DNA of 64,000 bases from an uncultured Acetobacter sp. (GTDB taxonomy: Bacteria > Pseudomonadota > Alphaproteobacteria > RF32 > CAG-239). Both the position numbers and the translations under genes were made by a program. Shown here piece after piece: positions 28,086 to 64,000 of the stretch (position 1 is the first letter of the stretch; every line of letters begins with the position of its first letter). The stretch covers positions 7,822-71,821 of the forward strand of contig CAYQDC010000001.1 of assembly GCA_964416205.1 (NCBI GenBank), written 5' to 3'. The notes beneath the pieces are model-generated. The model searched no databases. It was not told where the DNA came from and saw nothing but the letters and a program-made list of their open reading frames with translations.

Positions 28086-29174
28086 TTATCCTTGTTTAAA
28101 AACATCATCCATAACCGAGATAACCCTGTTATTAAATGGATGGGCGTATTTAAGCGTTGTTTTGATATTTGAGTGCGCCAGCGAGTCTTTGACCAGGCGC
28201 AAATCTCCGGTAGAATTATATATCCATGTAGCGTGCGTATGGCGCAGGGTATGAATGGTATAATGTGGAAGTCCGGCGCGTTTAAGCGCATTGTTCCACG
28301 CTTTATTTATCCTTTTTACCGGCATTCCCTTATAGGTAAATATATAATCAGAGTTATGGGGCAGGGTATCAAGTAATTCCTTTAAGACCGGAAAAATGGG
28401 TTTGCGCTGCATTTTTCCACCCTCAAATTTACAGTCTTTTACTCTGATGATAATTTCATCGCCGACAATATCCGTCCATTTCAGATTTAAGATAGTTGAG
28501 ATTCTTAAGCCGGTATAAATAGCGGTTAAGATTATCGGCTTAATGTGCGGGGCGGAATTATCAACGATTTTGTTTACGGTTTGCCAGTCCGCAAAGTATT
28601 TCACATTTTCCGCCGGTTCTTTACGCATAAATTGCCTGATGTTAATATCCGGCAAATTTATTTTATGTAACCGGCAACGTGAAAAAACAGCCGACAACAA
28701 AGCCAGATAGCGGTTGATAGTGGCGTTTTTTCTGTTTTCAGCGTCTTTTGCCCTTATAAAAGCGGTAATATCCTCAACAGTTAAATTTGATATATATTGT
28801 TGCGAATTAAAGTAAGATATTAAGTTTTTCAGTTTATTAAAAGTATCTTTGGCATTGGCGTGCAATTTACCCACTTCGTCCCAGAATAAACCAAAAGCAT
28901 AATCTACAGTTACCTCTTTTAGTTGAGCTGTTTTGAATCTCGCTTGCTCGATAATGTCCTGAAGTCTTTGGTTTGCATATTGCAAAGCCTGATTGCGGTC
29001 TGTTGTGTGAGAGCTTTCGCGAATGAAAACTCTTTGTCCGCTGACGATGGTTGAAATCGTGATATGGTAGATTTTTCCCCTTTTAACGAGCTTGACAGGG
29101 GCTTTGTTGTATTTTGCAGACATTGTTCTACACTCCATTGGGGAATTAAGTATGTTGTACCGGATTGAATACAC
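28086..29174 (-). CDS. int: tyrosine integrase (phage integrase family)
   Basis: C-terminal catalytic region HTLRHTHATW...LAHSNIKTTLKYAH (R..HxxR..Y); N-terminal SAM-like domain; true start may be internal Met (~29123). Confidence 0.9.
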   Translation of the reverse strand: MYSIRYNILNSPMECRTMSAKYNKAPVKLVKRGKIYHITISTIVSGQRVFIRESSHTTDRNQALQYANQRLQDIIEQARFKTAQLKEVTVDYAFGLFWDEVGKLHANAKDTFNKLKNLISYFNSQQYISNLTVEDITAFIRAKDAENRKNATINRYLALLSAVFSRCRLHKINLPDINIRQFMRKEPAENVKYFADWQTVNKIVDNSAPHIKPIILTAIYTGLRISTILNLKWTDIVGDEIIIRVKDCKFEGGKMQRKPIFPVLKELLDTLPHNSDYIFTYKGMPVKRINKAWNNALKRAGLPHYTIHTLRHTHATWIYNSTGDLRLVKDSLAHSNIKTTLKYAHPFNNRVISVMDDVFKQG

Positions 29175-40395: not shown

Positions 40396-40788
40396 TTATA
40401 AATCAGTGTTTACCGCGTCCGTATCCTTTTTCAAATCAGCTATCAACTCGTCCACCGTGTCAAAATGACCAAAAACGCGCCCTGCTTTTATGTCGGCTTC
40501 TACATTAGCCATTGCCTGCGCAATAAACTCTTCTTCTGTATTTAATACACATTTCCCGTTATGCCATATCTCACTGGAATCAATATCTGTGTCATCTGTC
40601 CAGGTTATACCATAACCACCACAATCAATCCTGCCTTTGGCAAACAGCCCCGGAATATCCTTTAACGGTTTAAATGCTTCGTATTTATCAAACAGCGGTT
40701 TCATATCATACAGTTTTTGCACGCCACTTACAAATTCGGCTTTTATGATAAAATCCGGCAAAAAGTTTATTTTCTTTATTTTAAACAT
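40396..40788 (-). CDS. DUF2442-like protein with C-terminal extension
   Basis: N-terminal pattern KI..V.....L...F.nG......L.PL.........F..V.V.--I.W.-...D...-..W resembling DUF2442; AGGAGG RBS before ATG 40788. Confidence 0.55.
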   Translation of the reverse strand: MFKIKKINFLPDFIIKAEFVSGVQKLYDMKPLFDKYEAFKPLKDIPGLFAKGRIDCGGYGITWTDDTDIDSSEIWHNGKCVLNTEEEFIAQAMANVEADIKAGRVFGHFDTVDELIADLKKDTDAVNTDL

Positions 40789-40799
40789 CGTCGGCCTCC

Positions 40800-41054
40800 T
40801 TATGTAAGCGGTGGCAATACCTTGAATTGTTGCGATTGCCACATTTCCAGCAATTCTTTTTTATGAATCTCCATCCACTCGATAACCATTGCAGCAGCCC
40901 TTGCTGGCAAATCCCCCTCAAGCATTTTCAGGCTTTGAATATCAAACAGGGCGCTGTATTCTCCGTAAATAACATGCACGTGTGGCGGATTATGCTCCGC
41001 CCCCAACAGAAACATTTTTATCACTATTCCATAAAATCGCGCAATCACCGGCAT
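40800..41054 (-). CDS. DUF4160-like protein
   Basis: EHNPPHVHVIYGEYSALFDIQ...LPARAAAMVIEWMEIHKKELLEMW matches DUF4160 signature; AAGGAG RBS; 11 nt upstream of DUF2442 gene. Confidence 0.6.
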   Translation of the reverse strand: MPVIARFYGIVIKMFLLGAEHNPPHVHVIYGEYSALFDIQSLKMLEGDLPARAAAMVIEWMEIHKKELLEMWQSQQFKVLPPLT

Positions 41055-41293
41055 TTTTTGTTCTCCTTTACTATACTTTTATTGTAGCTTATAAGTTACA
41101 ATAAATCAATAGTGGTTTATAATTTTTCTCCACCAATATAAAAGCGCAGAAAAAAAACACATACGGTTTCCAAAAGGTATTGACTTTTCCGAAAACGTGT
41201 GCTAGAAGTTATCACAATGGATAATTGTCGCCTGGTGATTGTCCATTTTTTTTACTCTTAATTATTATCCCTCCTTAAATATTAAATGACACT

Positions 41294-41326
41294 GCCCCCG
41301 CTTTGCACCTGCCGGGGGCTTTTTTA
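41294..41326 (+). terminator. rho-independent terminator that is part of a ~30-nt repeat also present at 60504-60533
   Basis: GCCCCCG...CGGGGGC stem + TTTTTT; repeat gccgggggcttttttaatggaaaaacg(c/a)ca. Confidence 0.5.
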
Positions 41327-41342
41327 ATGGAAAAACGCCACT

Positions 41343-41789
41343 ATGGACACGATAGAACTGTATTTGCGCGGGCTTTCAGACAAACCCCAAAAGCCCTTAA
41401 CAACTATGGAGATGTATTTACAGGGAGTTAAAATCGAACCGCCAAAGCCTCGTACGGTTATTGAATGTTATTTAGCTGGCGTCGCCTGTGACGAGTGGCA
41501 GGAAGAAGACCACCCGCGCGATGATGACGGTAAATTCAGCAAAGTCAGAGGAAAAAACGCAAAATCGGTTGCCAAAAACGCCGGAAAGTGTAAAATAAAA
41601 AGACGACGCCGGATTGTCAGATTATCCGAAAAAGAGTTCGCCGAAGTTCAGAGCGCTTTTATGACTGATGTTACTAAGGAACAACGAAAGCAAAGTGTTT
41701 TGAAAAAATACATCGGCAATTATATTTACACCGGGATTTTGCGTGAAGACGGCACCAGAGATATTGTTAAAAGGATAAAAATAAAATGA
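41343..41789 (+). CDS. 'HPRD' module protein copy 1: N-terminal ELYLRG/KP.KP repeats, DHPRDDDGKF linker, basic C-terminal domain
   Basis: Paralogous to 59725..60240 and to the C-terminus of the portal 43951..45762. Confidence 0.5.
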   Translation: MDTIELYLRGLSDKPQKPLTTMEMYLQGVKIEPPKPRTVIECYLAGVACDEWQEEDHPRDDDGKFSKVRGKNAKSVAKNAGKCKIKRRRRIVRLSEKEFAEVQSAFMTDVTKEQRKQSVLKKYIGNYIYTGILREDGTRDIVKRIKIK

Positions 41790-42040
41790 CGCTGGATTTT
41801 AAGGCAATAATAAACAAAGCAATTTCTGAACCTGTTGGTCTGGAATTATATAATATCTTGCGTGATATATGGAATGATGAAGAATTTTTGGCCTTAAATC
41901 TTTATGAAATGGATACGCCGGAAAAAAAACAGAAACTGATTGGCTATATTCGTCAATATGATATTACAAGCCCCAGCGATGTTAATTTGCTGGCAGATTA
42001 TATTGATGACGGAATAGAACCGGAGCTTGAAGAAGATTGA
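41786..42040 (+). CDS. small acidic protein, family member 1 (84 aa), coupled to the copy-1 module gene
   Basis: ATGA overlap with upstream stop; homologous to 45763.., 46043.., 60240.. (shared ..LY.IL.D.WN..EF.. and ..KKQKLI.YI..Y.......D.NLL..YI.DG.EPE.EED). Confidence 0.5.
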   Translation: MTLDFKAIINKAISEPVGLELYNILRDIWNDEEFLALNLYEMDTPEKKQKLIGYIRQYDITSPSDVNLLADYIDDGIEPELEED

Positions 42041-42088
42041 TACCCACCCGCCGGCGCACATAACAACCGGCTTTTTTTATACCTTTAA

Positions 42089-42726: not shown

Positions 42727-43947
42727 ATGGCGGGATTATCAAAATTGATAGCACCGCCGTTTTATGCAATTCATTTAGATATTAAGAACGGCGGACATAC
42801 TGAATACTGGCTAAAAGGAGGCCGTGCGTCCACAAAGTCAAGTTTTATCAGTATTGAAATAATCTTAACGCTGATAAAATCACCGGGAACGCACGCCGTT
42901 TGCTACCGTAAAGTCGGCAACCGTCTGGAAACCTCGGTATATAACCAGATTAAATGGGCGGTGAGTGCCTTGGGTTTAATGCCTTATTTCAGGTTTTACA
43001 AAAACCCCCTCAAGGCCGAATATACCTTAACCGGGCAACACATCCTTTTCTTAGGCCTGGACGATCCGGAAAACTCGCGTTCGATTAAACTGCCGTTTGG
43101 TTACATCAAACAACTGTGGTTTGAAGAGCTGACCCAATATGACGGTATGACGGAAATCCGCAACGTTATGCAGTCCGTTATCCGTGGCGGTGATGATTGT
43201 CTGATTTATTATTCCTACAATCCGCCGATAGAGCCGAACAACTGGGTAAATATTGAAGCCAAAACCGACAACCCGGCGCGCCTTGTTCATCACTCTACTT
43301 ACGAGGGCGTCCCGGCCGAGTGGCTGGGCAAGTCCTTTTTTGTTGGTGTTGAACACTTAAAAAAGACCAACGAAAGAGCCTACCGCCACGAATACTTAGG
43401 TGAAGAAGTCGGCACCGGCTTATCGGTATTCACTAACATAGAATCCCGGATATTGCCGGAAGAAGAAACCCGACATTTTGACAATATATGTGAGGGTATC
43501 GACTGGGGCTATTCTGTTGACCCGTTTGTGTGGCTTAAAATGCACTATGACCGCAAACGCCAGACCGTTTACATTTACGAAGAGATTTATCAGGTTGGCC
43601 TGTCCAACCGGGAATCTATAGATCTTGTCAGAGCCGTCCACGATGACGACGCGATAATCATTGCCGATTCTGCCGAGCCAAAGTCTATATGGGAGTTTGC
43701 CGACGCTGGTCTGCCTGTTGAGCGAGCCGAAAAGGGCGCTGGTTCAGTCAGATTCGGCATAAAGAAGTTACAGGGTTTGGAAAAAATCGTCATCGACCCG
43801 CACAGATGCCCAAACGCCCTGCGGGAGTTTACCGGCTATGCTTACGAGGTGGACAAACAGGGCAACCCCAAAGCCAGTTATCCTGATAAGGACAATCACT
43901 GTATCGACTGCGCCCGCTATGCGCTGGAACAACAATTTGAGTATTAG
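42727..43947 (+). CDS. terminase large subunit (PBSX/Terminase_3-like)
   Basis: N-terminal ATPase (GGRASTKS Walker A-like), C-terminal nuclease with acidic residues; 406 aa. Confidence 0.8.
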   Translation: MAGLSKLIAPPFYAIHLDIKNGGHTEYWLKGGRASTKSSFISIEIILTLIKSPGTHAVCYRKVGNRLETSVYNQIKWAVSALGLMPYFRFYKNPLKAEYTLTGQHILFLGLDDPENSRSIKLPFGYIKQLWFEELTQYDGMTEIRNVMQSVIRGGDDCLIYYSYNPPIEPNNWVNIEAKTDNPARLVHHSTYEGVPAEWLGKSFFVGVEHLKKTNERAYRHEYLGEEVGTGLSVFTNIESRILPEEETRHFDNICEGIDWGYSVDPFVWLKMHYDRKRQTVYIYEEIYQVGLSNRESIDLVRAVHDDDAIIIADSAEPKSIWEFADAGLPVERAEKGAGSVRFGIKKLQGLEKIVIDPHRCPNALREFTGYAYEVDKQGNPKASYPDKDNHCIDCARYALEQQFEY

Positions 43948-43950
43948 ACA

Positions 43951-45762
43951 ATGAAGTTTTTTAAGAAAAAAGCCCCCAAAGCCCCGGTTGTTATGCCAAA
44001 ACCGAAAAAAGAAGAGCGCGCTACCCCTTTTCATCCGCAGATGACCAGACCGAGCCTTATGGCGGGCTTTGACGCCAGTATCAGACGCCGGGCTGATGAA
44101 TTTGTTGTCGAGCAGGTGAATATCGGTGGCAACATCCTGAATATCGCCACCGACGGCAAATTGTCCCAATCTGCCCGCAACGCTCTGGCACAGGCGTATG
44201 AACCGAATATTGCCGGGCAGGAGATTATTTATACCTATTTTGCCAGACAGAGCTTTATCGGCTTTCAGAACTGCGCTATCCTGTCGCAGAACTGGCTTAT
44301 CAACAAAGCCTGCATGCAACCGGCAGTTGACGCCGCCGCCATTGCTTATGACATTACCTTAAACGATGACGAAACCACCGACGAGGACAACCGTATTCTT
44401 GACGAGCTAAAGGCCAAAGCCACCTTTACGCAGAATTACGATATTATCGGTATATGCCGGGAATTTGCCGAGAAAAAGCGCCGTTTTGGTCAGGCTCTGT
44501 GTCTGCCGGTTGTTGATGATGTCGATTATTCCCTGCCGTTTAATATAGACGCCGTCGGCCACCACACCTATAAGGGAATGGTAAACATCGAACCGCAGTG
44601 GATAACGCCTGTTTTAGACGGCAGAGCGTCAAACGACCCGACCTGTCGCCGATTCTACAAACCGACATATTTTCGCCTGCCAGACGGACAGATTGTCCAC
44701 CACAGTTGGGTGCAGTTTGCCACGTATGGCAATATTCCCGATATTTTGAAGCCAACCTATTATTTTGGCGGTTATCCGTTGCCACAACTGTTATATGAAC
44801 AGGTTTACGCCGCCGAAAAGACCGCCAAAGAAGCCCCGATGCTGGCACAGTCCAAACGCCTGAACTACATGGAGGGCAACCTAAACGCCTATATTACCAA
44901 CGCTGATAAGATGGACAAAGAAATCCGCCTTATGTCTTGGCTTAGGAATAACTGGGGCTGGATGCTGGTAGGGCGCGATCAGAAACTTGGACAGCTTGAT
45001 ACCAGCTTAACCGATGTCGATTCGGTTACAATGCTAAGCTATCAGATTGTCGCCGCCATTGCCGGTATGCCGTCCGCCCGCTTACTTGAAACTTCGCCCA
45101 AAGGCTGGCAGTCTTCCGGCAGTTACGAGGACGAAAACTACAAAAAGCTGTTGTTATCCATACAGGAGCAGGATTTTGTCCCGATTCTTAATCGTCATTA
45201 CCGCCTGCTGACCAAATCCGAATACGGCAGAAGCTACGAATACAACTGCGTATTTACCCCGATTGACACGCCGTCGGCAAAAGAACTTGCGGAGATTAAC
45301 GAAATCAACAGCCGGACCAACGCCGCTTATATCAGTGCTGGGGTTGTATCTGCCGAAGAAGTCCGCAACGCCCTAAGACAGGACGAAAACAGCGGTTTCA
45401 ATGCCTTATCCGAAGAAATGGAAGCAGAAGAAGACCTTTCCGGCCTGTTTGGTGAGGAAGAAGAACAGCCCGAAGAGCCAAAAGACGAACCAGCCCTTGA
45501 CGCGTGGCAGGAAACAGACCACCCCCGGGATAAAGACGGCAGGTTCTCTTCCTCTGGTAGCAATTCCACAGGGAGCAAAAAAACAGTTGTCAAACTCTCA
45601 AAAAAAGAATATGGTAAAATCACGCACGAATTAAACACCAACCTCACAAAAGAGGAAATAAACAAAGGTTATACTGAACGATATATCGGCAACCGAAAAT
45701 ATTATATTTTTATTAACGGATTTAATGACTATAAAATTCTTGATTGGGAGAAAATAAAATAA
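43951..45762 (+). CDS. portal protein with C-terminal 'HPRD'-module extension
   Basis: 603 aa, follows terminase; C-terminal ~115 aa (from ~45409) = acidic linker + DHPRDKDGRF + basic domain homologous to copies 1 and 2. Confidence 0.7.
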   Translation: MKFFKKKAPKAPVVMPKPKKEERATPFHPQMTRPSLMAGFDASIRRRADEFVVEQVNIGGNILNIATDGKLSQSARNALAQAYEPNIAGQEIIYTYFARQSFIGFQNCAILSQNWLINKACMQPAVDAAAIAYDITLNDDETTDEDNRILDELKAKATFTQNYDIIGICREFAEKKRRFGQALCLPVVDDVDYSLPFNIDAVGHHTYKGMVNIEPQWITPVLDGRASNDPTCRRFYKPTYFRLPDGQIVHHSWVQFATYGNIPDILKPTYYFGGYPLPQLLYEQVYAAEKTAKEAPMLAQSKRLNYMEGNLNAYITNADKMDKEIRLMSWLRNNWGWMLVGRDQKLGQLDTSLTDVDSVTMLSYQIVAAIAGMPSARLLETSPKGWQSSGSYEDENYKKLLLSIQEQDFVPILNRHYRLLTKSEYGRSYEYNCVFTPIDTPSAKELAEINEINSRTNAAYISAGVVSAEEVRNALRQDENSGFNALSEEMEAEEDLSGLFGEEEEQPEEPKDEPALDAWQETDHPRDKDGRFSSSGSNSTGSKKTVVKLSKKEYGKITHELNTNLTKEEINKGYTERYIGNRKYYIFINGFNDYKILDWEKIK

Positions 45763-45995
45763 TGGAAGAAGATACTTATATAGAAACAAAAAACGCGCCA
45801 AAGCTTCGCGAACTTCTGTCTGAATATTCATTGAACAAAAAGGACATAGATATTCTGTTATATTTTCTGCCCACCGAGGAAGCCCGGCAAAAAATGATAG
45901 ATTTCATTGAACAGGAAAAACCGGCAACGACGAAAGAGATTGCACGAAAAGTTCCTGAATTTGGAAATTTAAGACTGGTCGTCCCTGAAGATTAA
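45763..45995 (+). CDS. small acidic protein, family member 2 (77 aa)
   Basis: GGGAG RBS; ATG 1 nt after portal stop. Confidence 0.5.
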
Positions 45996-46042
45996 AAACA
46001 AAGGCTTTAATGAGTATGAGATAATCGGAAAGGTGAAAATAC

Positions 46043-46276
46043 ATGGTGTCGATTAAAAGGGAAGACGTCCCCACGGAAACCGGGAAGAAACTTTATGATT
46101 TGCTGGTTGATTCCTGGAATAACCCTGAATTTATCCGGGGAACTCTGGCAATTCTTAGAGGCGACGCCAAAAAACAGGAGTTAATTGACGCTATAGAGGC
46201 AGGAATGACTGACTCTGACGATATTATTAGTAAATCTTGGGAAATCGCCTTTGGAGAAAAGTTGCCCGGTGATTAG
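46043..46276 (+). CDS. small acidic protein, family member 3 (77 aa)
   Basis: Homologous to member 1 (LYDLLVDSWNNPEF vs LYNILRDIWNDEEF). Confidence 0.5.
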   Translation: MVSIKREDVPTETGKKLYDLLVDSWNNPEFIRGTLAILRGDAKKQELIDAIEAGMTDSDDIISKSWEIAFGEKLPGD

Positions 46277-46461
46277 AAACAATCCGTCTTTAAGGATAAA
46301 AGGAAAAAGCTAGATTGGGAGGACGGCCAACCCCATTTAAGGGAATCCCTCCATCGTAATAGCTTTGTAAGCTACCCGGCAGGCGAGGCCGAATTTTCTG
46401 CAGTTCAATCCAGCTTTTATATATTTATACTACCACAAAAATTGGAAAAAGCAAGCGATAA

Positions 46462-47277
46462 ATGTCTGAAAATGAATTAACATCAACCAGGCTGAACCCG
46501 AACGCCGGTATAATGGCATGGTATGTTCGGGAGTTGCGCAAACTCACTCACGCAATGACGGCGGAATGTCGGGCGCGGTTAAAGGAAATCTATGCCACCG
46601 GCTATCCTGACATTGCCTTTGATGAAAGTATTTCAAGTCAGGCCAGAATTGCCTTAAATGAATTACTGGAAAAATACGGCGATAAGTTCAGCAGGCGGGC
46701 GAAAACCCTTGCCCGGGATTTGGTAAACCGCACCAACCGGTATTCAAACAATCAGGTAAACCGGGCAATAAAAGATATGTTAAGCGATAAGGCAAAAGAT
46801 TTTACCCTGTCGCTGTCGGTTACCTCTGCCGAAAAAAAGGAAATCTTTAAAGCGCTGATTTTTGAAAATGTCAGTCTGATTAAGTCGATTCCCAACGACT
46901 ACTTTAAGCAGATAACCGGCGCCGTTGCCCGATCTATTGAAAACGGCGAGGGTATTCGCTGGCTGGCCAGACAGTTAAGGAAAACCGGTTATTCAACCGA
47001 ACGGCGGGCGCAGTTAATCGCGCAGGATCAGACCCGCAAAGCCTACAGCTGTATCAACCTGCGCAATTTTCAGGAGGCAGGTATTCGCAAATTCAGGTGG
47101 TTACATTCGGGAGGCTCTGCCAACCCGCGAGAATACCACAAAAACGTATTAAGTGGCAATGTTTATGACATTAACGACCCGCCGATAATCGATAAAAACA
47201 CCGGCGAGCGGGGTTTCCCCGGGCAGTTGCCTTATTGCCGGTGTGTGATGTGCGCGGTGTTATCTTTTGAGGAATAG
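46462..47277 (+). CDS. head morphogenesis protein, Mu F / SPP1 gp7 family
   Basis: Phage_Mu_F-like core (...IAQDQTRKAYSCINLRNFQEAGIRKFRWLHSGGS...). Confidence 0.75.
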   Translation: MSENELTSTRLNPNAGIMAWYVRELRKLTHAMTAECRARLKEIYATGYPDIAFDESISSQARIALNELLEKYGDKFSRRAKTLARDLVNRTNRYSNNQVNRAIKDMLSDKAKDFTLSLSVTSAEKKEIFKALIFENVSLIKSIPNDYFKQITGAVARSIENGEGIRWLARQLRKTGYSTERRAQLIAQDQTRKAYSCINLRNFQEAGIRKFRWLHSGGSANPREYHKNVLSGNVYDINDPPIIDKNTGERGFPGQLPYCRCVMCAVLSFEE

Positions 47278-50078: not shown

Positions 50079-50366
50079 ATGGTAAAGGTTGTATCTGAAC
50101 TGGAGAACACTTTTGTCAAAGGTATTCTGCTTAAAAAAGGTGAGAATTATCTGACGTCGGCAAATTATGCTGTTCTGGCCACAAGCCCGGTATTTAAGAA
50201 TTATATCCGGCGGGAATTTATGAAAGTAACTGCAGAAGAACAAACCGCAGAACAAACCGCAGAACAAACCGCGAAAACGACGGAATCAACAGCAACAGCA
50301 ACGGTGGAAGAAGTCAAAACCACCACCAAAAAGAAAAAATCCAAAAAAAAGGGGAGTGAAGAATAA
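50079..50366 (+). CDS. hypothetical head-completion protein with EQTA x3 repeat and K-rich tail
   Basis: 12-nt repeat gaacaaaccgca x3 (50230-50270). Confidence 0.35.
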   Translation: MVKVVSELENTFVKGILLKKGENYLTSANYAVLATSPVFKNYIRREFMKVTAEEQTAEQTAEQTAKTTESTATATVEEVKTTTKKKKSKKKGSEE

Positions 50367-55109: not shown

Positions 55110-55225
55110 ATGAGTTAAAAACCATTTACACCCTTGAAGATGCGATGAACATCTTTGAGGCTGTCTCCATTACAAAATACAACGAATATCTTATCGCTTC
55201 CGCATCTTTGAAAGAGAAAAGGTAA
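55007..55225 (+). CDS. -1 frame extension (GT-like) of tail assembly chaperone
   Basis: Overlapping ORF in -1 frame; GGGTTTA heptamer at 55067-55073 in X XXY YYZ register of the upstream frame. Confidence 0.4.
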   Translation: MGFLEQGSLPCRIESFRNIDGFTGQIIASGHATLNELKTIYTLEDAMNIFEAVSITKYNEYLIASASLKEKR

Positions 55226-57294
55226 TGGCCGGAGTACTAGACATATTTACGATTGCGTTTCAGTCTGACGGATTGAAAGACTTTGAGACGGAATTAAAAC
55301 GCAACGAAGCCGAACTTGCCAGATATGAAAAACAGGTTGCCGAGACTGAAAAAAAGATGAAGTCTTTGGCCGACGCCGGCAAGTCCGACACCGTTGAATA
55401 TAAAAAGCTGGCAACCGAGCTTGAACAGGCTAAACAGCAGGTAAAGTTATTTGGCGACAGTGTAACCAGACTTAAAGGCGATCCGCAGGCATCTGTTTTG
55501 GAATTACGCCAGAAGTTTTCAAGTCTGGTTACTACCGTTGGCAAAATAGCCACTGTCGGCCTTGCCATTAAAAAAGCCCTTAACTTTGCCGAACAGGGGC
55601 AACAGCTTGACTGGCTGGCACAAAAAGCCGGTATAACCGCAGAAAAACTGTCCACAATCGGCAATGCCGCCAGAGCTTTTGGTGGCACCACCGAGGGTAC
55701 TGCCGGCACAATGGAAAATCTGCGCAGTCAATATCAGAGCCTGCTAATGGGCGAGGGTGGTGGAGCTTTAGAGCAAGCCACTTTCAAATACGGGGTGCAA
55801 ATATCGTCAGACCCCGCACAGATGTTGGAAAACATCGCCAAACGTATGGAAACCCTGAAATCAGACGCTGAAAAATGGGATTTGGCCAAAACTCTTGGCC
55901 TTGACGAGGGGACGACCCGGCTGTTAATACAGGGGCTTGATAAATACCGCGCTTCGCTGGAAAGAGCTTCCAAATATAAGATATTTACGCAGGACGACAT
56001 TAACCGTATGCGCGAATATCAGCAGATTTCCGGCGATATCCGTATGGGTATTGACAGCATTTTCAACAGTATTTACCGCGCTATGCTCCCGGCATTGACC
56101 GAAGTGGCAAAAGTCATTCGTAACATTACCGACTGGCTGGCGACCCATTCCGGTATGACCAAAATACTGGCGACACTGGCCGCCGTTGCTGTCGGCATTA
56201 TGTCCGTTACCAGTGGCGTCAAACTGTTAAACGTGGCGTTTAAAGTTCTGGCTGGCAATCCGGCCGTTCTTATGTGGGCAGGAATTGTCGCTGGCATTAC
56301 GGCCGTCATTGCCGTTATTCAGGATATATACACGTGGCTAAACGGCGGTAAAGCCGTTTTTGGTGACTTTTACCAGTCTGTAGCTGATAATTTCAGCGCC
56401 GCCCTTGAGTTTGTACGTAATTTCTGGGACGGCTTGACCGATGTCCCGGCCGACGCTTTTGAATGGCTGTTTACACAGGTTGATGAAATAAAAGCGACAT
56501 TTAACCAGTTAAAAGAATTTTTTACTGATTTATGGAACGGCTTTGGCGACGGCGTTAAAACTGCCTTTCAGGGCATTATTGAGTGGATTAAAAACAAACT
56601 GGCCTCGCTTGTGGACTGGATGCCCGAGCGCCTGAAAAAATGGCTTGGTCTGGAGAATTTTACCACCGATTCGCCCAAAGACCCTGACGACAGCAGTTAC
56701 ATCTCACCATACAGAGAAAACGAAAGAACCCCCGCCGACCGCACCTATTTTTCACCAGATACCGATAGAACCAGCGACGCCAGCCGTTATATCTCACCCT
56801 ACAGCGAAAACGAGTCCACCCCCGCCAACACTTCGTATTTTTCACCAGACAGCGAAAACGAGAGAACTCCCGCCAACCCCTCTTATTTTTCTTCGGACAG
56901 AGAAAACGAGCCGACACCCCAAACCCCCTCGTATTTTTCTCCAGACAGAGAAAAAGAGAGAACGCCCAAAACCCCCTCGTATTTTTCTCCAGACAGAGAA
57001 AAAGAAAGAACGTCTAAAAACAACACCTACATTTCACCATGGGAGGCGGCAGCCCGCGGGCAGACAATGTTGATATACGCCAACCAGTCGCCATTAAACA
57101 GCGCACCGGCGGGGGCGGTATCAAATTACTACTCAACGCAGGCCACCAACCAGACAATGATTGACAATACTAAGACCTACAGTCAGAGCAAAAGTTTTGT
57201 CATTCAGAATATGACCGTTAAGACGGACAATCCAAAATCCTTTATGGAAGAGGGTATGCAAACGGCGGTAACTTTTGACAATGGATTTGAATAA
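55225..57294 (+). CDS. tail tape measure protein
   Basis: 689 aa, coiled-coil N-terminal half, hydrophobic middle segments, C-terminal tandem repeats. Confidence 0.8.
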   Translation: MAGVLDIFTIAFQSDGLKDFETELKRNEAELARYEKQVAETEKKMKSLADAGKSDTVEYKKLATELEQAKQQVKLFGDSVTRLKGDPQASVLELRQKFSSLVTTVGKIATVGLAIKKALNFAEQGQQLDWLAQKAGITAEKLSTIGNAARAFGGTTEGTAGTMENLRSQYQSLLMGEGGGALEQATFKYGVQISSDPAQMLENIAKRMETLKSDAEKWDLAKTLGLDEGTTRLLIQGLDKYRASLERASKYKIFTQDDINRMREYQQISGDIRMGIDSIFNSIYRAMLPALTEVAKVIRNITDWLATHSGMTKILATLAAVAVGIMSVTSGVKLLNVAFKVLAGNPAVLMWAGIVAGITAVIAVIQDIYTWLNGGKAVFGDFYQSVADNFSAALEFVRNFWDGLTDVPADAFEWLFTQVDEIKATFNQLKEFFTDLWNGFGDGVKTAFQGIIEWIKNKLASLVDWMPERLKKWLGLENFTTDSPKDPDDSSYISPYRENERTPADRTYFSPDTDRTSDASRYISPYSENESTPANTSYFSPDSENERTPANPSYFSSDRENEPTPQTPSYFSPDREKERTPKTPSYFSPDREKERTSKNNTYISPWEAAARGQTMLIYANQSPLNSAPAGAVSNYYSTQATNQTMIDNTKTYSQSKSFVIQNMTVKTDNPKSFMEEGMQTAVTFDNGFE
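56695..57040 (+). repeat. ~8 tandem degenerate 39-42-nt repeats encoding SYFSPD(R/S)E(N/K)ERTP... within tape measure
   Basis: Repeated peptide units visible in translation (SYISPYRENERTPADRTYFSPDTDRTSDASRYISPYSENESTPANTSYFSPDSENERTPANPSYFSSDRENEPTPQTPSYFSPDREKERTPKTPSYFSPDREKERTSKNNTYISP). Confidence 0.6.
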
Positions 57295-58198: not shown

Positions 58199-59030
58199 AC
58201 GGGTTTGTTACATTGAGGTAGAAACCGTCAACAACGGCTCTAAGGTGATGAAAAACCTTAACGGCCTTGCTATCCGTGGCCGAGTCTGTCGCCGTATGGG
58301 TTCAGTTGGTTCAGACGCCCGCGTTGCCGTTGCCAACCTCTCTACAGAGGACTTGGAATACCTGACCACCTATGTTTCGCCATACATAAACCCCGATATT
58401 CGCAAGAAAATCAACATTTACGCCGGTTATGAAGAAACCGGCTACGGACGGATATTTGCCGGCGACATATACAAAGCCCTGCCAGACGGAATGCCCGACA
58501 CCTGGTTGAATATGGAAGCCAGAAGCCTGTATTTCGAACAGCGCACGCCCTTAAGTTATGGCACTGGCGAAGTAACGACACAGACTCTGGCGCAGTCTAT
58601 CGCCACTGAAATGGGTATGACCCTGGTTTGGGACGCCACCGAAGTTAAAACCATCGATGACTTTAACTTTTCCGGCTCAACCGGTGATTTAATCAAAGAA
58701 TACAATCAACTTTCAGATGTCGTCTTATTTGAAGACAACGGCCAGCTGAAAGCAGTTGACCGGAATCCGTCATCAAGCGGGCGGACTATGAAGCTTATCA
58801 CCAAAGACACCGGAATGATAGGCTTGCCCGAACCCGATCAGTTCGGCGTTAAAGTCCGTTGCTTATTAGACCCCTCAATAGCCTGCGGTGACTGGGTGCG
58901 GGTTGAGAGTGTGAAAATCCCGGCATTAAACGGCGAATATCAGATATACACCATAGATTATGACTTTTCCAGCCGTGAGCAGGCTTTTTATTGCGACATA
59001 TACGCAAGAAAGACCGGCGTCGGTATATGA
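58188..59030 (+). CDS. baseplate hub-like protein (280 aa)
   Basis: position before spike. Confidence 0.4.
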   Translation: MKNKRVCYIEVETVNNGSKVMKNLNGLAIRGRVCRRMGSVGSDARVAVANLSTEDLEYLTTYVSPYINPDIRKKINIYAGYEETGYGRIFAGDIYKALPDGMPDTWLNMEARSLYFEQRTPLSYGTGEVTTQTLAQSIATEMGMTLVWDATEVKTIDDFNFSGSTGDLIKEYNQLSDVVLFEDNGQLKAVDRNPSSSGRTMKLITKDTGMIGLPEPDQFGVKVRCLLDPSIACGDWVRVESVKIPALNGEYQIYTIDYDFSSREQAFYCDIYARKTGVGI

Positions 59031-59038
59031 GGTTGACA

Positions 59039-59728
59039 ATGGCAGAAGTTAATTTACCGGCAGTTAATCCGTCAGACGTGCGAACGCAGGCGGGTATTTT
59101 GGAGTTCACGCAAAAGAAGTTCAAAAGCACGATTGAAAAGGTTATTCCGGCGCAGGTTATAAGTTATGATCGCGCCACCAACCGCGCCGAAGTGCAGATT
59201 TTGCCCCTGGACATAACCTCAACAGGTGAAAAGTTGCAACGTCGTCCCCTGCTTAACATTCCGATCCTGACCTTAACCGGTGGCGGTTTTGTGTTCAGTT
59301 TACCGGTAAAAGCGGGCGATGTTGGCTGGATTGTCGCTTCCGATAAGGATATTTCGGTATTTAAACAGACTTTAGCCGAATACACGCCCAACACTTACCG
59401 CCGGCATAAATACGAAGACAGCTTTTTCATACCCGATAACTTAAACGGCTTTACCATTGCCGAAGATGACAACGAAGCCGTGCTGTTATCTTCTGTTGAC
59501 GGCGTAACCAAAATCAGCCTTAAAGACGGCGTCGCCACCATAACCGCCGCGTCGGTTATCGTCAACGGCGAAACCACCATTAACGGCAACACCACTATTA
59601 ACGGCGATTTGAACATATCCGGCACTGCCACGGCCACAACAGAAGTCGTCGGTGGCGGTATAAGCTTAACCGGACACGTCCACGGTGGCGTAACCGGTGG
59701 CAGTGGCACAACAGGAACACCACAATGA
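59039..59728 (+). CDS. baseplate spike (P2 gpV/gp5-like) protein
   Basis: OB-fold-like N-region then beta-helical repeats (TTINGNTTINGDLNISG) and apex LTGHVHGG HxH motif. Confidence 0.55.
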   Translation: MAEVNLPAVNPSDVRTQAGILEFTQKKFKSTIEKVIPAQVISYDRATNRAEVQILPLDITSTGEKLQRRPLLNIPILTLTGGGFVFSLPVKAGDVGWIVASDKDISVFKQTLAEYTPNTYRRHKYEDSFFIPDNLNGFTIAEDDNEAVLLSSVDGVTKISLKDGVATITAASVIVNGETTINGNTTINGDLNISGTATATTEVVGGGISLTGHVHGGVTGGSGTTGTPQ

Positions 59729-60240
59729 ACACAATAGAATTATACTTGCGCGGGCTTTCAGATAAACCTGAAAAGCCCCTCACAACTATGGAACTGTATT
59801 TGCGCGGACTTTCAGACAAACCAAAGAAACCCCTCACGACTATGGAGATGTATTTACAGGGCATTAAGGTTGACCCACCCAAGCCCCGCACCGTTATCGA
59901 GTGCTATTTAGCAGGCGTCGCCTGTGATGAGTGGCAGGAACAAGACCACCCCCGCGACGACGACGGCAAATTTACTTCCTCTGGCCGTAGCTCCACAGGG
60001 CGCAAAAAACCGGTTGCAAAAAGCATCATAAAGTCTAAAATAAATGCAAGACGGCAAAAAGCCGTTTCCCTGTCTCCCCGGGAATATGGTCTTTTACATC
60101 ATGGTCTTAACGAGTATATCGCGGGAAAAGATATTCCCAAAGGTAAAATTATGCAATGGTGGACAGGAGAATATTGTTACGAGGTTTTGATAAATGGATA
60201 TAATGATTATGTCCCATTGATGAAAAGGAAAATACGTTAA
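59725..60240 (+). CDS. 'HPRD' module protein copy 2 (4 N-terminal ELYLRGLSDKP.KPLTTM-type repeats, DHPRDDDGKF, basic C-domain)
   Basis: ATGA overlap with spike stop; >80% nt identity to copy 1 over the N-terminal part. Confidence 0.5.
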   Translation: MNTIELYLRGLSDKPEKPLTTMELYLRGLSDKPKKPLTTMEMYLQGIKVDPPKPRTVIECYLAGVACDEWQEQDHPRDDDGKFTSSGRSSTGRKKPVAKSIIKSKINARRQKAVSLSPREYGLLHHGLNEYIAGKDIPKGKIMQWWTGEYCYEVLINGYNDYVPLMKRKIR

Positions 60241-60473
60241 TGTATGAAAAAGAGCTGGAAGAGGCGTTGCATACAGCGTTTCAAACAGACGCGGAAGCCC
60301 TTGGGTATGAAGATGTTTTTGTTAAGGGCGGGTTGTTGGTATGCGACACGGATGAAAAAAGAAAAAAACTGCTTGACCTTATCAACCGGTACGATTTGAA
60401 CGTCAGCGATATAAATCTGGCTATTGTATATATAAACGATGGCTTAGACCCTGAATTTGAAGAAGATGCCTGA
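60240..60473 (+). CDS. small acidic protein, family member 4 (77 aa)
   Basis: 1-nt overlap (TAATG); C-terminal EKRKKLLDLINRYDLNVSDINLAIVYINDGLDPEFEED aligns with member 1. Confidence 0.5.
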   Translation: MYEKELEEALHTAFQTDAEALGYEDVFVKGGLLVCDTDEKRKKLLDLINRYDLNVSDINLAIVYINDGLDPEFEEDA

Positions 60474-60497
60474 TTTATAAAGCACAACATCAAACCA

Positions 60498-60518
60498 GCC
60501 CCCGCCGGGGGCTTTTTT
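60498..60518 (+). terminator. terminator, second copy of the ~30-nt repeat
   Basis: GCCCC-cgccg-GGGGC + TTTTTT; identical downstream aatggaaaaacg then ATG of next gene. Confidence 0.45.
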
Positions 60519-60533
60519 AATGGAAAAACGACA

Positions 60534-60878
60534 ATGAAAACCATAGCAATTAACGATTCCAACGATATTTACCTCAATACATCGGGCAATTTAATGGTTA
60601 AATCCGATTTAGAGGCAATGGCGGATATTCTGACCAACAAGGCGCAGGGCAATCGGGGCGGTTTGCGCTATGACACAGAAAAGGGCATTGATTTCTTTAA
60701 TACCATATTCGCCAGCCCCTCATACCCTGATTTATTTCAGGCGCAGTTGACAGCAGAGCTTGCTGACACCGACGAGGTGTCCTCTGTTGCGGATTACGAG
60801 GCAGAAACAAACGACGGCGTTTATTCTTACACGGTAAACATTACCACATCTTACGGAGAGGTTACACTTAATGGCTAG
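60534..60878 (+). CDS. baseplate wedge protein (gpW/gp25-like), candidate
   Basis: 114 aa directly before baseplate J. Confidence 0.4.
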   Translation: MKTIAINDSNDIYLNTSGNLMVKSDLEAMADILTNKAQGNRGGLRYDTEKGIDFFNTIFASPSYPDLFQAQLTAELADTDEVSSVADYEAETNDGVYSYTVNITTSYGEVTLNG

Positions 60879-62319
60879 CAATTACAGTTACAACAATTCG
60901 GGGGTTGTTATCCCGGACACGGCAGACGTTCAGGAAGAAGTGCAAAGCGAGTTCACCGAAGCCCTTGGCACGGATTTATCACTGGAGGAGGAAACCCCAC
61001 AGGGGCGGTTGATTGACACAGAAACGCAGGCGCGGGTGGCAACCCTTACTTTTAACGCCGATATGGCCAACGTTTTAATCAACTTCACAACATCATCCGG
61101 CACGGCTTTGGACGCATGGGGGGAGAATTTTAACATCTCCCGGGTTGGTGCTTATGCGTCAACCGTACCGGTATTGGTAACCGGTATTGCCAACACGGTG
61201 ATTCCAGCCGACGCCCAGGCCAGCGCCAACGGCGTTATCTGGCTAAACGAAAGCGAAATCATCATTGGCAGTAACGGCACGGCAACCGGGACTTTCTATT
61301 GTTCAGAAACCGGCGCTATAGAGCTTGGCATTGGTGAGCTGAATACCGTCATCGGCAGTTCCACCCTTGGCGTGTCTGGTTGGGAAACCATTACCAACAC
61401 GGCCGTGGCGACCCCTGGCGCCGACAGGGAAAGCGACACCAGCTATAAAAAACGTATTCTGGCCGGGCTTTTCTCCGGTTCGGCGTTGTTTGGCAATTAT
61501 AAAAGCGCTTGTATTGTCCTGGATAACGTTTCTGACGTATTCACTTACGATAATCCGTACGGCGAAGCCCGCCAGCTTGATAACTGGACGATTCCCGCCC
61601 ATAGCGTATTCGTATGTGTCGAGGGTGGCGACGCCGAAGAAGTTGCGTATGCCTTATATGAAGTCAAATCCGCCGGTTGTGGCTGGAGTGGCAATACCTC
61701 GGTTGTCGTAACCGATAAGACATACAATACCAGCAACCCGGTTGAATTTTACATTCCCGCCAGTGTCAACATTGCGGTTGAACTGGACTTAACCGCAGAA
61801 TCAAGCTCTGACTCTGATTTGGAAAACACGGTAAAAGACGTGATTGTGTCCTATTTTGCCGGAGAATATGCCGATAACAACTATGACGGTTTGGGGATTC
61901 GGGCTTTAATCAGTCCGTCGGTTATATCCGCCGTGGTAACATCACAGGTATCCGGTATCAGTATCACCGGTTGCCGGGTTGGTCTGGTAACGCCTGAACC
62001 TCACGCCATTGCGTCCATTATTAAGGCGTCCATAACCTCGGGTGTAACCTGGGCAAGTGTCGACACCTCAACTTTTGGCAGTGCTGTATCAGCTAATGGT
62101 ACATATAACTTTACATACACCGAGTCGGGCTGGCAGTTATCCGGGGCAGGTGTAGACCTTGCAACTTACGGCGTAACGATTGAGGGAACACCGGTTGAAG
62201 GCGACCTTGTTTCCATTCTTTACGCCGACGGCAATCTGGCGCAGGATCCGATACGGCTGTTCTGCACCGAAACGGCAGCAATTTCAACAGATGACATAAC
62301 GGTAAACATCAATGGCTGA
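60871..62319 (+). CDS. baseplate J-like protein
   Basis: 482 aa, typical size/position; ATGG overlap. Confidence 0.7.
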   Translation: MASNYSYNNSGVVIPDTADVQEEVQSEFTEALGTDLSLEEETPQGRLIDTETQARVATLTFNADMANVLINFTTSSGTALDAWGENFNISRVGAYASTVPVLVTGIANTVIPADAQASANGVIWLNESEIIIGSNGTATGTFYCSETGAIELGIGELNTVIGSSTLGVSGWETITNTAVATPGADRESDTSYKKRILAGLFSGSALFGNYKSACIVLDNVSDVFTYDNPYGEARQLDNWTIPAHSVFVCVEGGDAEEVAYALYEVKSAGCGWSGNTSVVVTDKTYNTSNPVEFYIPASVNIAVELDLTAESSSDSDLENTVKDVIVSYFAGEYADNNYDGLGIRALISPSVISAVVTSQVSGISITGCRVGLVTPEPHAIASIIKASITSGVTWASVDTSTFGSAVSANGTYNFTYTESGWQLSGAGVDLATYGVTIEGTPVEGDLVSILYADGNLAQDPIRLFCTETAAISTDDITVNING

Positions 62320-62939: not shown

Positions 62940-63248
62940 ATGGAAAGATTTAAAGATATTATAGGCACATATTCAATCTGGGGCGGTTTTATTGCTATGG
63001 TTACGGTGTTAATCCGCCCTTTTATTTCAATCAGATACACTTTGCGCGATACGGCGATAACATTTCTGGTAAGTATGCTGTCCGGCCTTTTGTGCGAATA
63101 TCTGAACATTTCCGACCCGGTACGCTATGGCCTGTCCGGCGTCTGCGGGTTATTTGCCGTCAGGATTTATATGATAGCCGAAGCAATTTTGAAAAAGCTG
63201 GAAAAAGACCCGGAAAACTTTATCAATCACTGGCGTCAAAAGGAATAG
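62940..63248 (+). CDS. small membrane protein (holin-like topology), 102 aa
   Basis: Three hydrophobic helices, charged C-terminus. Confidence 0.35.
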   Translation: MERFKDIIGTYSIWGGFIAMVTVLIRPFISIRYTLRDTAITFLVSMLSGLLCEYLNISDPVRYGLSGVCGLFAVRIYMIAEAILKKLEKDPENFINHWRQKE

Positions 63249-63393
63249 GGCATAAAAAAGCCCGATGCGACAACACCGGGCTTCCTGTTAAATGAAAGGA
63301 TTATGTAATGATAATAAACTTATTTTATCAACTAAACAAATAGCAAAACAGCAAGCACTTGTCAAGCCCTTTTTTTATCAATTACAAAAATAC

Positions 63394-63422
63394 TTGACAA
63401 TGCTACAATATTGTAGTGTAAT
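63394..63422 (+). promoter_or_regulatory. sigma70 promoter TTGACA-17-TGTAAT with perfect 14-bp palindrome CTACAATATTGTAG in the spacer
   Basis: -35 63394-63399, palindrome 63403-63416, -10 63417-63422; 33 nt upstream of HicB-like ATG. Confidence 0.5.
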
Positions 63423-63455
63423 TTTTTTGCAAAAGAGGATAAAGCGACCATAAAT

Positions 63456-63851
63456 ATGTTAAAATATATCGCATTATTTGAAACAGACGCGGAAGCTGAC
63501 GGGGTAGGTGTTATTTTCCCTGACCTTCCTGGGTGCTTTTCTTCTGGTAAAGATTATGAGGAGGCGGTAAAAAACGCACACGAAGCACTTGCTGATTATC
63601 TTGGCACGCTTAAAGACATTCCCACGCCACGCACATTAGAACAAATCAAAAAAGAATGGCCGGACTGGCAGGAATGGACTGACAATTATTCTTTTACTTT
63701 AGGTTATGTCAGTTATCTTCCAGTTGAAAAGCCACGTAAATATTCTATTTATATGAGTCAGTCCTTAATGGCGCAAATAGACGCCGTTACCGACAATCGT
63801 TCGGCGTTTCTGACAAGAGCTGCTGAACAGGCGTTAGGTTTGACAAATTAG
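63456..63851 (+). CDS. hicB: HicB-family antitoxin-like protein (UPF0150 N-domain + RHH-like C-terminus)
   Basis: YIALFETDAEADGVGVIFPDLPGCFSSGKDYEEAVKNAHEAL typical HicB N-domain; C-terminal SIYMSQSLMAQID...AAEQALG RHH-like. Confidence 0.65.
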   Translation: MLKYIALFETDAEADGVGVIFPDLPGCFSSGKDYEEAVKNAHEALADYLGTLKDIPTPRTLEQIKKEWPDWQEWTDNYSFTLGYVSYLPVEKPRKYSIYMSQSLMAQIDAVTDNRSAFLTRAAEQALGLTN

Positions 63852-64000
63852 AAAAGAGCTTGACAAGGTAACATCACAGCCTTATTTTTTACTTGACTCT
63901 GCAAGAAAAATAAGGTATCTTAACCTCAGAAGAAGTTAAGGTTATGGCTTAGCTCCTTTCAGGTTAGATAAATGCCGGTGTTCGTTCCACCGGCATAAAC

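Follow-up and report, generated by a model that had tools for sequence, protein, structure and literature searches.

In the CdiA-CT/CdiI and Rhs cassettes, short motifs (VENN and PxxxxDPxGL) mark the switch from constant to variable sequence, and orphan modules lie downstream; in phages, morons are extra genes inserted between conserved late genes. Phage polyvalent proteins, which occur as MuF and portal fusions and as solo versions near structural genes, have been proposed to be packaged in the capsid (Iyer et al. 2017, PMC5512222). A family of MuF polymorphic toxins has been defined in temperate phages (Jamet et al. 2017, PMC5576092), and a prophage polymorphic toxin of the Bxa type is accompanied by protective genes, with two immunity proteins (PMC11699363). 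Here we describe a 64,000-nucleotide (nt) stretch of DNA from an uncultured Acetobacter sp. (contig CAYQDC010000001.1, positions 7,822 to 71,821; hereafter the window), in which a prophage carries, between its gpV-like spike gene (V) and its gpW-like sheath initiator gene (W), a gene for a 171-residue protein, here called copy 2, followed by the gene for a small acidic partner. With moderate confidence, we read this pair as one cassette of a polymorphic phage system of cargo effector plus cognate partner, within the world of polyvalent proteins and of polymorphic toxins borne by MuF and portal proteins. Because at least four copies of the cassette are present and its end-domain recurs as a fusion to the portal protein, the pair probably encodes an effector carried by the phage, together with a dedicated neutraliser, and not a structural component.

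Copy 2 (59725–60240; all coordinates are on the + strand unless stated otherwise; homologues P0003, P0002 and P0004) opens in an ATGA overlap, reading CAATGAAC, on the TGA stop codon of the spike gene, which ends at 59728 and encodes a Pfam gpV N-terminal domain and an Apex motif. The protein consists of a leader with four ELYL repeats (59725–59925), a junction motif, DEWQEQDHPRDDDGKF (59926–59973), a basic linker and a variable C-terminal domain of ~62 residues (60046–60237). Scanning the window for [IM]ExYLxG located four repeat units in copy 2 (59734, 59788, 59842 and 59896) against three in a related gene near the terminase, copy 1 (41352, 41406 and 41460), and no further unit in any frame of the 64 kb; within copy 2, Tandem Repeats Finder assigns a period of 54 nt and a copy number of 2.0 to 59746–59855. 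AlphaFold2 models the leader as four short helices with proline-rich linkers between them, at a predicted local distance difference test score (pLDDT) of ~65. The T[IM]E that opens each ELYL unit bears some likeness to a T4-type prohead-protease site, an idea that was set aside. The acidic partner (partner 2, 77 residues, 60240–60473, charge -13.4) has its start translationally coupled to copy 2 through a TAATG overlap, and is followed by a hairpin (7 bp, six of them G-C) and a T-run (60497–60519). The 3' end of the cassette (60497–60533) thus comprises the G+C-rich hairpin (60497–60513), the T-run and a leader, AATGGAAAAACGACA, that reaches the start codon of W. The spike overlap, the repeat counts, the acidic partner and the terminator-like hairpin had all been noted in a preliminary description of this DNA and are borne out here. 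No promoter-like site was found upstream of copy 2, and since the gene also overlaps the spike stop codon, its expression should be late and coupled to the structural genes. The G+C content of the cassette is 39%, versus ~48–52% in its flanks.

The preliminary description regarded the pair as an insertion between V and W, and comparison with related phages agrees: in three distinct phages (L042/43, L044–46 and L050/51), whose V proteins are 55–69% identical to that of the window, V overlaps W directly, which identifies the copy-2 pair as an accessory insertion. More distant relatives likewise have W immediately after V, so that a gene between the two is by no means shared by all relatives. In another relative, L047 (V 61% identical), the identical ATGA-overlapped position is occupied by a 192-residue gene with the same leader and junction motif (MNTIELYLQGLTDKPKSPRSFIECYLQGVAFDEWEEEKHPRDRDGKF...), which makes the V–W junction a recurrent home for the ELYL leader; this gene ends in the Pfam domain LPD13 (E = 5.6e-18). 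The portal protein of L037 also ends in LPD13, and that of L040 in PBECR3, preceded by NEWDESKHSRGKDGKF. The end-domain is thus exchanged for LPD13 or PBECR3 in the L047 gene and in the L037 and L040 portals, and the pattern is that of a polymorphic system, in which an invariable carrier leads through a junction motif to an end that can be exchanged. The portal gene of L037 (10077–12071) has a different junction (…GSGNFNHAGRPGKVGGS…) before its LPD13 domain, which suggests that a second family of junction motifs may exist in the same role.

A gene placed immediately after V, translationally coupled to it and ahead of W raises the prospect that its product rides on or behind the tail spike, as do effectors of type VI secretion systems and extracellular contractile injection systems, with the ELYL leader as its loading signal. 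The L047 gene, from an independent relative, resembles copy 2 in being encoded next to the spike with the same leader and motif while ending in LPD13, and the predicted short helices with their proline-rich linkers would be plausible as a flexible docking or loading segment. The leader is not confined to this site, however: it is also found on copy 1 upstream of the terminase and on P0006 between the neck genes of L048, and leaderless versions lie between the tail chaperone and tape measure genes. The fusion partners of the end-domain are head proteins (portal and MuF), family-library scans detected no PAAR, adaptor or spike-binding domain, and three relatives build their baseplates without a copy-2 gene. 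Delivery on the spike is in our judgement a minority possibility, of low probability.

The variable domain that ends copy 2 has the consensus LSKxEYAxVxHELNTNLTKEERKKK...IGNYxYxxxNNGFNxYxII over ~62 residues. The same end-domain closes Phage_portal_3 proteins (P0011, P0021 and the portal of the window) and Phage_Mu_F proteins (P0101 and P0103). AlphaFold2 predicts one helix and a three-stranded sheet (pLDDT 94–98) for the end-domain, and models the partner, which matches no DNA-binding family, as a bundle of four helices (pLDDT 94) that continues into a disordered acidic tail. The partner family comprises 38 clusters, and a partner gene lies directly downstream, overlapping or abutting, in every end-domain locus fetched: three times in the window and in L001, L002, L033–36, L037–39, L040–41 and L048–49. 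Subtypes of the two proteins co-vary, with pairwise identities correlated at r = 0.66 (Mantel p ~2e-4); end-domains of the copy-1 type go with partners of the copy-1 type (L037, L040) and those of the copy-2 type with partners of the copy-2 type (L001, L033). Charges are complementary in most pairs, at +5 to +11 for the end-domain and -11 to -15 for the partner. The motif with its end-domain on the one hand, and the partner on the other, form two delimited families, neither of which is represented in Pfam, NCBIfam, PHROGs or PADLOC; searches of PDB sequences with both family profiles returned nothing, and when 61 members were scanned with Pfam at E ≤ 10, the only matches were at chance level (e.g. 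DUF2459 and SKIP_SNW), with no ParE/RelE signal. The label of a RelE-like toxin was considered and not applied, as Foldseek, the Pfam scan of the 61 members and the alignment to YafQ all failed to support it.

A basic and an acidic small protein in a tightly coupled two-gene unit with its own terminator and an atypically low G+C content could also be an intracellular toxin-antitoxin pair, or a moron for abortive infection or superinfection exclusion, that is never packaged and whose HPRD leader is a relic of a polyvalent-protein origin. The company kept by such pairs is compatible with this: in L001 and L033–36 they stand directly beside a gene for SocA_Panacea, a domain known from toxin-antitoxin systems, with PBECR1 nearby in L001, and other morons of toxin-antitoxin type occupy nearby junctions (RelB/YafQ and DUF4258 in L047; HicB-like and DUF4160/DUF2442 in the window). 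The late, coupled expression expected of a gene that has no promoter-like site of its own and starts within the spike stop codon speaks the other way, as does the similar coupling to an upstream gene in L047, L048 and L037–40, and an identical end-domain is covalently joined to the portal and MuF proteins of the virion. The toxin-first order and a partner devoid of a DNA-binding domain are atypical for type II pairs, and neither sequence nor Foldseek backs a RelE/ParE fold. We consider this explanation unlikely.

Several observations nonetheless weigh against reading the pair as a packaged effector and its neutraliser. Pfam, NCBIfam, PADLOC and PHROGs contain no usable match for the end-domain, for copies 1 and 2 or for the partners; the best Foldseek hit of the end-domain in the PDB has an E-value of 0.19, its hhalign probability against the YafQ toxin is 0.1, and its invariant residues are only E and Y, which is weak for an enzyme. 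The co-variation of adjacent genes is explicable by co-inheritance or linkage alone, the pairs in L033 and L002 show no charge complementarity, and the LPD13 gene of L047 has no recognisable partner. The adjacency of SocA_Panacea in L001 and L033–36 also fits an intracellular toxin-antitoxin or defence role. Finally, as the stand-alone copies carry neither a portal nor a MuF domain, their packaging is conjecture.

The cassette is present in more than the two copies recognised in the preliminary description, both of which are real; a third HPRD module lies in the window on the C-terminus of the portal protein and a fourth elsewhere on the contig, and together the four represent three end-domain subtypes. 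Copy 1 (148 residues, 41343–41789) has three ELYL repeats, the HPRD motif and an end-domain of subtype A (...GILREDGTRDIV...), and is followed in an ATGA overlap by an acidic partner of 84 residues (partner 1, 41786–42040); an orthologous pair is found upstream of the terminase in L037–L041. Like copy 2, it has no Pfam or PHROG domain, and neither a MuF nor a portal domain. The DNA of the two copies is 84% identical over 188 nt (41349–41536 versus 59785–59972), the identity being 80–91% from the ATG to HPRDDDGKF and 30–40% beyond; at the protein level, identity is 25% over the final 66 residues and 36% between the partners. The end-domains and partners of the two belong to different subtypes, each with closer relatives in other genomes. 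Because the likeness stops at the HPRD motif and the end-domains and partners diverge, copies 1 and 2 are not related by simple duplication: of the cassette duplication or transposition proposed earlier, the shared leader and motif stand, and a recent duplication or transposition of one entire cassette does not. The G+C content drops by ~10–15 points after the motif in all three modules of the window, from ~50% to 39% in copy 2, 34–37% in copy 1 and 32–41% in the portal extension.

In the portal gene (43951–45762), Pfam Phage_portal_3 covers residues 106–454 only, and the C-terminal extension of 90 residues (45493–45762; family D5) reads HPRDKDGRF from 45520 and continues into an end-domain of subtype C (...DAWQETDHPRDKDGRFSSSGSNSTGSKK...INGFNDYKILDWEKIK). 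A weak PHROG 'portal protein' match at positions 647–747, the sole hint obtained from the family libraries, had pointed to this extension. The portal stop codon overlaps, as TAATG, the start (ATG at 45762) of a partner of 'b' type (P0166, 77 residues, 45762–45995), and a second partner, of 'a' type (77 residues, 46043–46276), follows; in L002, a partner of this type stands directly after a subtype-C end-domain gene. Between the two, and overlapping the start of the second, lies an orphan end-domain fragment, LKIKNKGFNEYEIIGKVKIHGVD* (45985–46056), which has no start codon and corresponds to the last ~23 codons of subtype C (70% identity over 20 residues by tblastn with P0002); it is a remnant such as cassette displacement leaves. 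P0002 itself is the fourth full copy, encoded outside the window on the same 75,740-bp contig, and combines the leader of copy 2 with an end-domain of the portal type.

The portal fusion lends itself to a different interpretation, in which the end-domain is a non-toxic accessory that binds nucleic acid or completes the head, sitting in the portal crown or escorting the DNA end, and the acidic partner, as an assembly chaperone or a mimic of DNA, prevents it from contacting nucleic acid before assembly. Twelve copies of the domain would sit on the portal C-terminus beside the packaged DNA. The domain itself is a small, basic one in which few polar residues are invariant, and it follows a lysine/arginine-rich linker; the partner, very acidic and helical, is a bundle of a generic sort. 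Such a function sits poorly, however, with several divergent paralogues in one genome, with a presence and position that vary among relatives, with low-G+C modules and an orphan fragment, and with the fact that LPD13 or PBECR3, a predicted RNase domain, can take the place of the end-domain at equal positions in the protein. These features point to an accessory module of the conflict type and not to a structural requirement, and a head-completion role seems to us quite improbable.

The junction motif, with the consensus W-x-E-x-x-H-P-R-D-x-x-G-K-F, is more widespread than the end-domain. When a profile of end-domain plus motif was searched against 1.84 billion protein cluster representatives (E ≤ 0.001), 766 matches were obtained, many of them to the motif alone. 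One class of matches comprises proteins of 80–250 residues with the motif and the end-domain at the extreme C-terminus, and the other giant proteins of 1,000–7,334 residues in which nothing but the motif matches, with 3 to 18 occurrences per protein. In eight of the giants scanned by regular expression, most intervals between motifs measure 140–500 residues, or roughly one domain; in P0022, the motifs at residues 45, 255, 484 and 947 flank Fic, Pyr_redox and Zeta-toxin domains. Scans of IMG/VR and of genomes revealed the motif in three settings: after portal domains, within proteins of 1,500–2,700 residues, and near the N-terminus of proteins of 180–220 residues with unrelated tails. Since it recurs between the domains of giant proteins and in all three settings, the HPRD motif is a junction placed ahead of domains of effector type in the polyvalent proteins of phages; no mention of it was found when the paper that defined these proteins (PMC5512222) was searched by term. 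A bolder proposal, which we put forward tentatively as possible but doubtful, is that the ELYL leader and the W-x-E-x-x-HPRD-x-x-GKF junction constitute a previously undescribed trafficking and processing signal that loads small, interchangeable effectors into the myovirus particle, some via the portal and others possibly via the spike or baseplate. In giant polyvalent proteins, the same motif would then mark the points of cleavage or recombination, and the prophage would carry a polymorphic arsenal of four warheads with their neutralisers.

The cassette resembles the MuF and Bxa toxins in having a conserved carrier and a variable C-terminal domain, represented here by three end-domain subtypes and by LPD13 in L047, and in its location in the late or packaging region of prophages, and the end-domain itself is found on MuF and portal proteins. 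Protective genes accompany the Bxa toxin, and a partner gene follows the end-domain here; the two partners of the portal copy recall the two immunity proteins of the Bxa system. In contrast to the MuF and portal systems, the carrier of copy 2 is a repeat leader of ~65 residues, the portal copy alone having a virion domain. Copy 2, moreover, is located in the baseplate module and not next to the portal, and its end-domain, at ~62 residues, falls well below the size of characterised toxin domains and shows no toxin fold that could be recognised. With the polyvalent proteins it shares the HPRD motif between domains and the occurrence of LPD13 or PBECR3 at the equivalent position in sister genes and portals; it differs in that its one domain stands alone and has a partner gene dedicated to it, and neither its end-domain nor its partner matches any Pfam LPD or PBECR model. 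The parallel with CdiA and Rhs extends to a motif at the switch from constant to variable sequence, to an end and partner that move as a unit, to orphan fragments with spare partners and to atypical G+C content, although delivery is presumed to be by the phage particle and not by type V or type VI secretion, the motif is another one and the domains here are much smaller. As in a phage moron, an extra unit of lower G+C content with its own terminator separates genes that are adjacent in relatives; unlike a moron, it has no promoter of its own that we could find, is translationally coupled to the upstream structural gene and belongs to a multi-copy polymorphic family. The lack of a detectable promoter, together with a partner that is predicted to be a four-helix bundle and matches no DNA-binding family, also sets the pair apart from type II toxin-antitoxin systems.

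As an effector with its neutraliser, the cassette might operate as follows. Expression would be late and coupled to that of a structural gene, and in the producing cell the partner would bind the basic end-domain, neutralising or chaperoning it. The leader or the HPRD junction would target or process the protein, and the end-domain would travel with the virion, as the versions fused to portal and MuF proteins necessarily do, to act in the next host. Recombination at the conserved motif-coding DNA would swap in new pairs of end-domain and partner, leaving orphan fragments and spare partner genes behind. The cassette closes with its own terminator hairpin and a short leader that sets the interrupted structural operon going again. 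If this is correct, temperate phages carry polymorphic effectors not just as large MuF fusions but also as tiny stand-alone genes that can lie between almost any two late genes, and a protein of 171 residues with a partner of 77 would offer a small, tractable system in which the role of the HPRD motif as a cleavage site, packaging handle or recombination hot spot could be addressed.

The 3' boundary of the cassette is marked by a repeat. As the preliminary description had observed, the 30-nt element at 60504–60533 recurs with one difference at 41311–41340, just upstream of copy 1, and the likeness extends to 36 nt at 92% identity (family D16). The 30-nt element has exactly two matches in the 64 kb even with three mismatches allowed (0 expected), which excludes a general phage-wide element. 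Both copies of the 36-nt repeat consist of a terminator-like hairpin, a T-run and a leader, AATGGAAAAACG(A/C)CA, that abuts the next start codon: copy B (60498–60533) follows partner 2 and restores the start context for W, and copy A (41305–41340), in which the hairpin has a longer loop, belongs to the late-operon leader and directly precedes copy 1. Partner 1 too is followed by a hairpin with a T-run (42050–42078), which makes a second cassette end of terminator type. In L048, which is another phage with another insertion site, the cassette ends in CAGCCCCGTG...ACGGGGTTTTTTTTATGGAAAG..., with the same architecture and partly the same sequence; because an equivalent element closes a cassette at a different site, the comparison supports the view that the terminator plus leader behaves as a cassette boundary. 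The mobile unit would then run from the start codon through the terminator and leader, and might have its source in cassettes arrayed head to tail. Ahead of the first late gene, the late-operon leader holds, in order, a promoter-like site (41095–41123), a strong hairpin with T8 (41216–41247; terminator to 41255) and a hairpin with T6 (41293–41319; terminator to 41325), an arrangement that suggests late control of the antitermination type, and the terminators inside the late operon likewise imply that late transcription would resist termination.

A different non-coding element, of ~100–115 nt, is conserved after HPRD-cargo genes: after the portal cassette in the window (46306–46418), after the V-adjacent LPD13 gene in L047 (6343–6445) and one base past a portal-HPRD gene in L004 (10527–10625), with nhmmer E-values of 8e-39, 9e-33 and 4.5e-13. 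Its invariant blocks are GGGAGG, CCCTCCATCGTA, CGGCAGGCGAGGCCG and TTTCTGCAGTTC, and RNAalifold predicts 37 pairs, 4 of them with compensatory changes. Rfam has no family anywhere in the window, nor in this conserved ~110-nt intergenic element. An integron attC-like reading of the element was dropped, since the copy of the window does not preserve the GTTRRRY-like ends of that in L047.

Among the relatives, the position of the cassette is variable but always inside the late structural operons. It is found upstream of the terminase (copy 1 of the window and L037–41), as a portal fusion (window), between neck genes (the leader-bearing homologue P0006 in L048), between the tail chaperone and tape measure genes beside a SocA_Panacea gene and without a leader (L033–36 and L002), in L001 with rlmH, a Panacea gene and a PBECR1 gene as neighbours, and between V and W (copy 2). 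The cassette gene is coupled to the gene upstream of it save in L033–36 and L002, where an intergenic gap precedes it. In L001 (8478–10141) and L033/L034 (8348–9272), a SocA_Panacea gene and a gene for 136 residues lie directly downstream of the leaderless HPRD pair, and in L001 a PBECR1-domain gene comes next, with ordinary chromosomal genes nearby; with such neighbours, the cassette travels in the company of other conflict modules. The hub–V junction is a further insertion hot spot in relatives, occupied in L047 (3398–4883) by RelB with a YafQ/ParE-type toxin and by a DUF4258 pair, and in L042 (2747–4581) by a 331-residue gene and a Bro-N gene. The V–W, hub–V, neck and chaperone–tape-measure junctions of E217-like prophages are hot spots for accessory cargo. 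Related sequences were also sought in other collections: a blastn search with 58900–61000 against 50,697 phage records gave no match, the gpJ-like protein found no relative in IMG/VR, and the ELYL leader as query retrieved nothing from JGI metagenomes or IMG/VR.

The prophage that harbours the cassettes is of the E217-like myovirus type and extends from an integrase gene (28086–29174, minus strand) to past base 64,000, whereas bases 1 to ~27,000 of the window are host chromosome, with genes for polyprenyl synthase, DnaB, PlsX and ClpB. The large terminase (42727–43947) precedes the portal gene, and a MuF-like protein is encoded at 46462–47277. Further late genes encode a DUF2213 protein, the capsid, a DUF3383 sheath and an E217 gp32-like tube, as well as a Dit-like protein, a Pam3 gp18-like plug and an E217 gp41-like hub; beyond the spike and the copy-2 cassette, the W gene (60534–60878) is followed by genes for gpJ-like and wedge proteins. 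On the minus strand, directly upstream of the late operon, lies a DUF4160 (40800–41054) and DUF2442 (40396–40842) pair. Past the wedge gene there are an open reading frame for a LydA-type holin-like protein (62940–63248) and a HicB-like antitoxin gene (63456–63851), the latter preceded by a 53-residue open reading frame without a family match (63292–63453); this stretch (62940–63851) is possibly one more accessory insertion among the tail genes. In the presumed tape measure gene (55225–57294), which has no Pfam match, there are ~6 tandem 48-nt repeats of 16 residues (…YFSPDxENExTP…; 56686–57039; families D1 and D2) that are 63–80% identical. After the capsid gene, a small acidic/basic open reading frame (50079–50366) contains a short 12-nt tandem repeat (50228–50279) that encodes (T)AEQ units (families D4 and D6).

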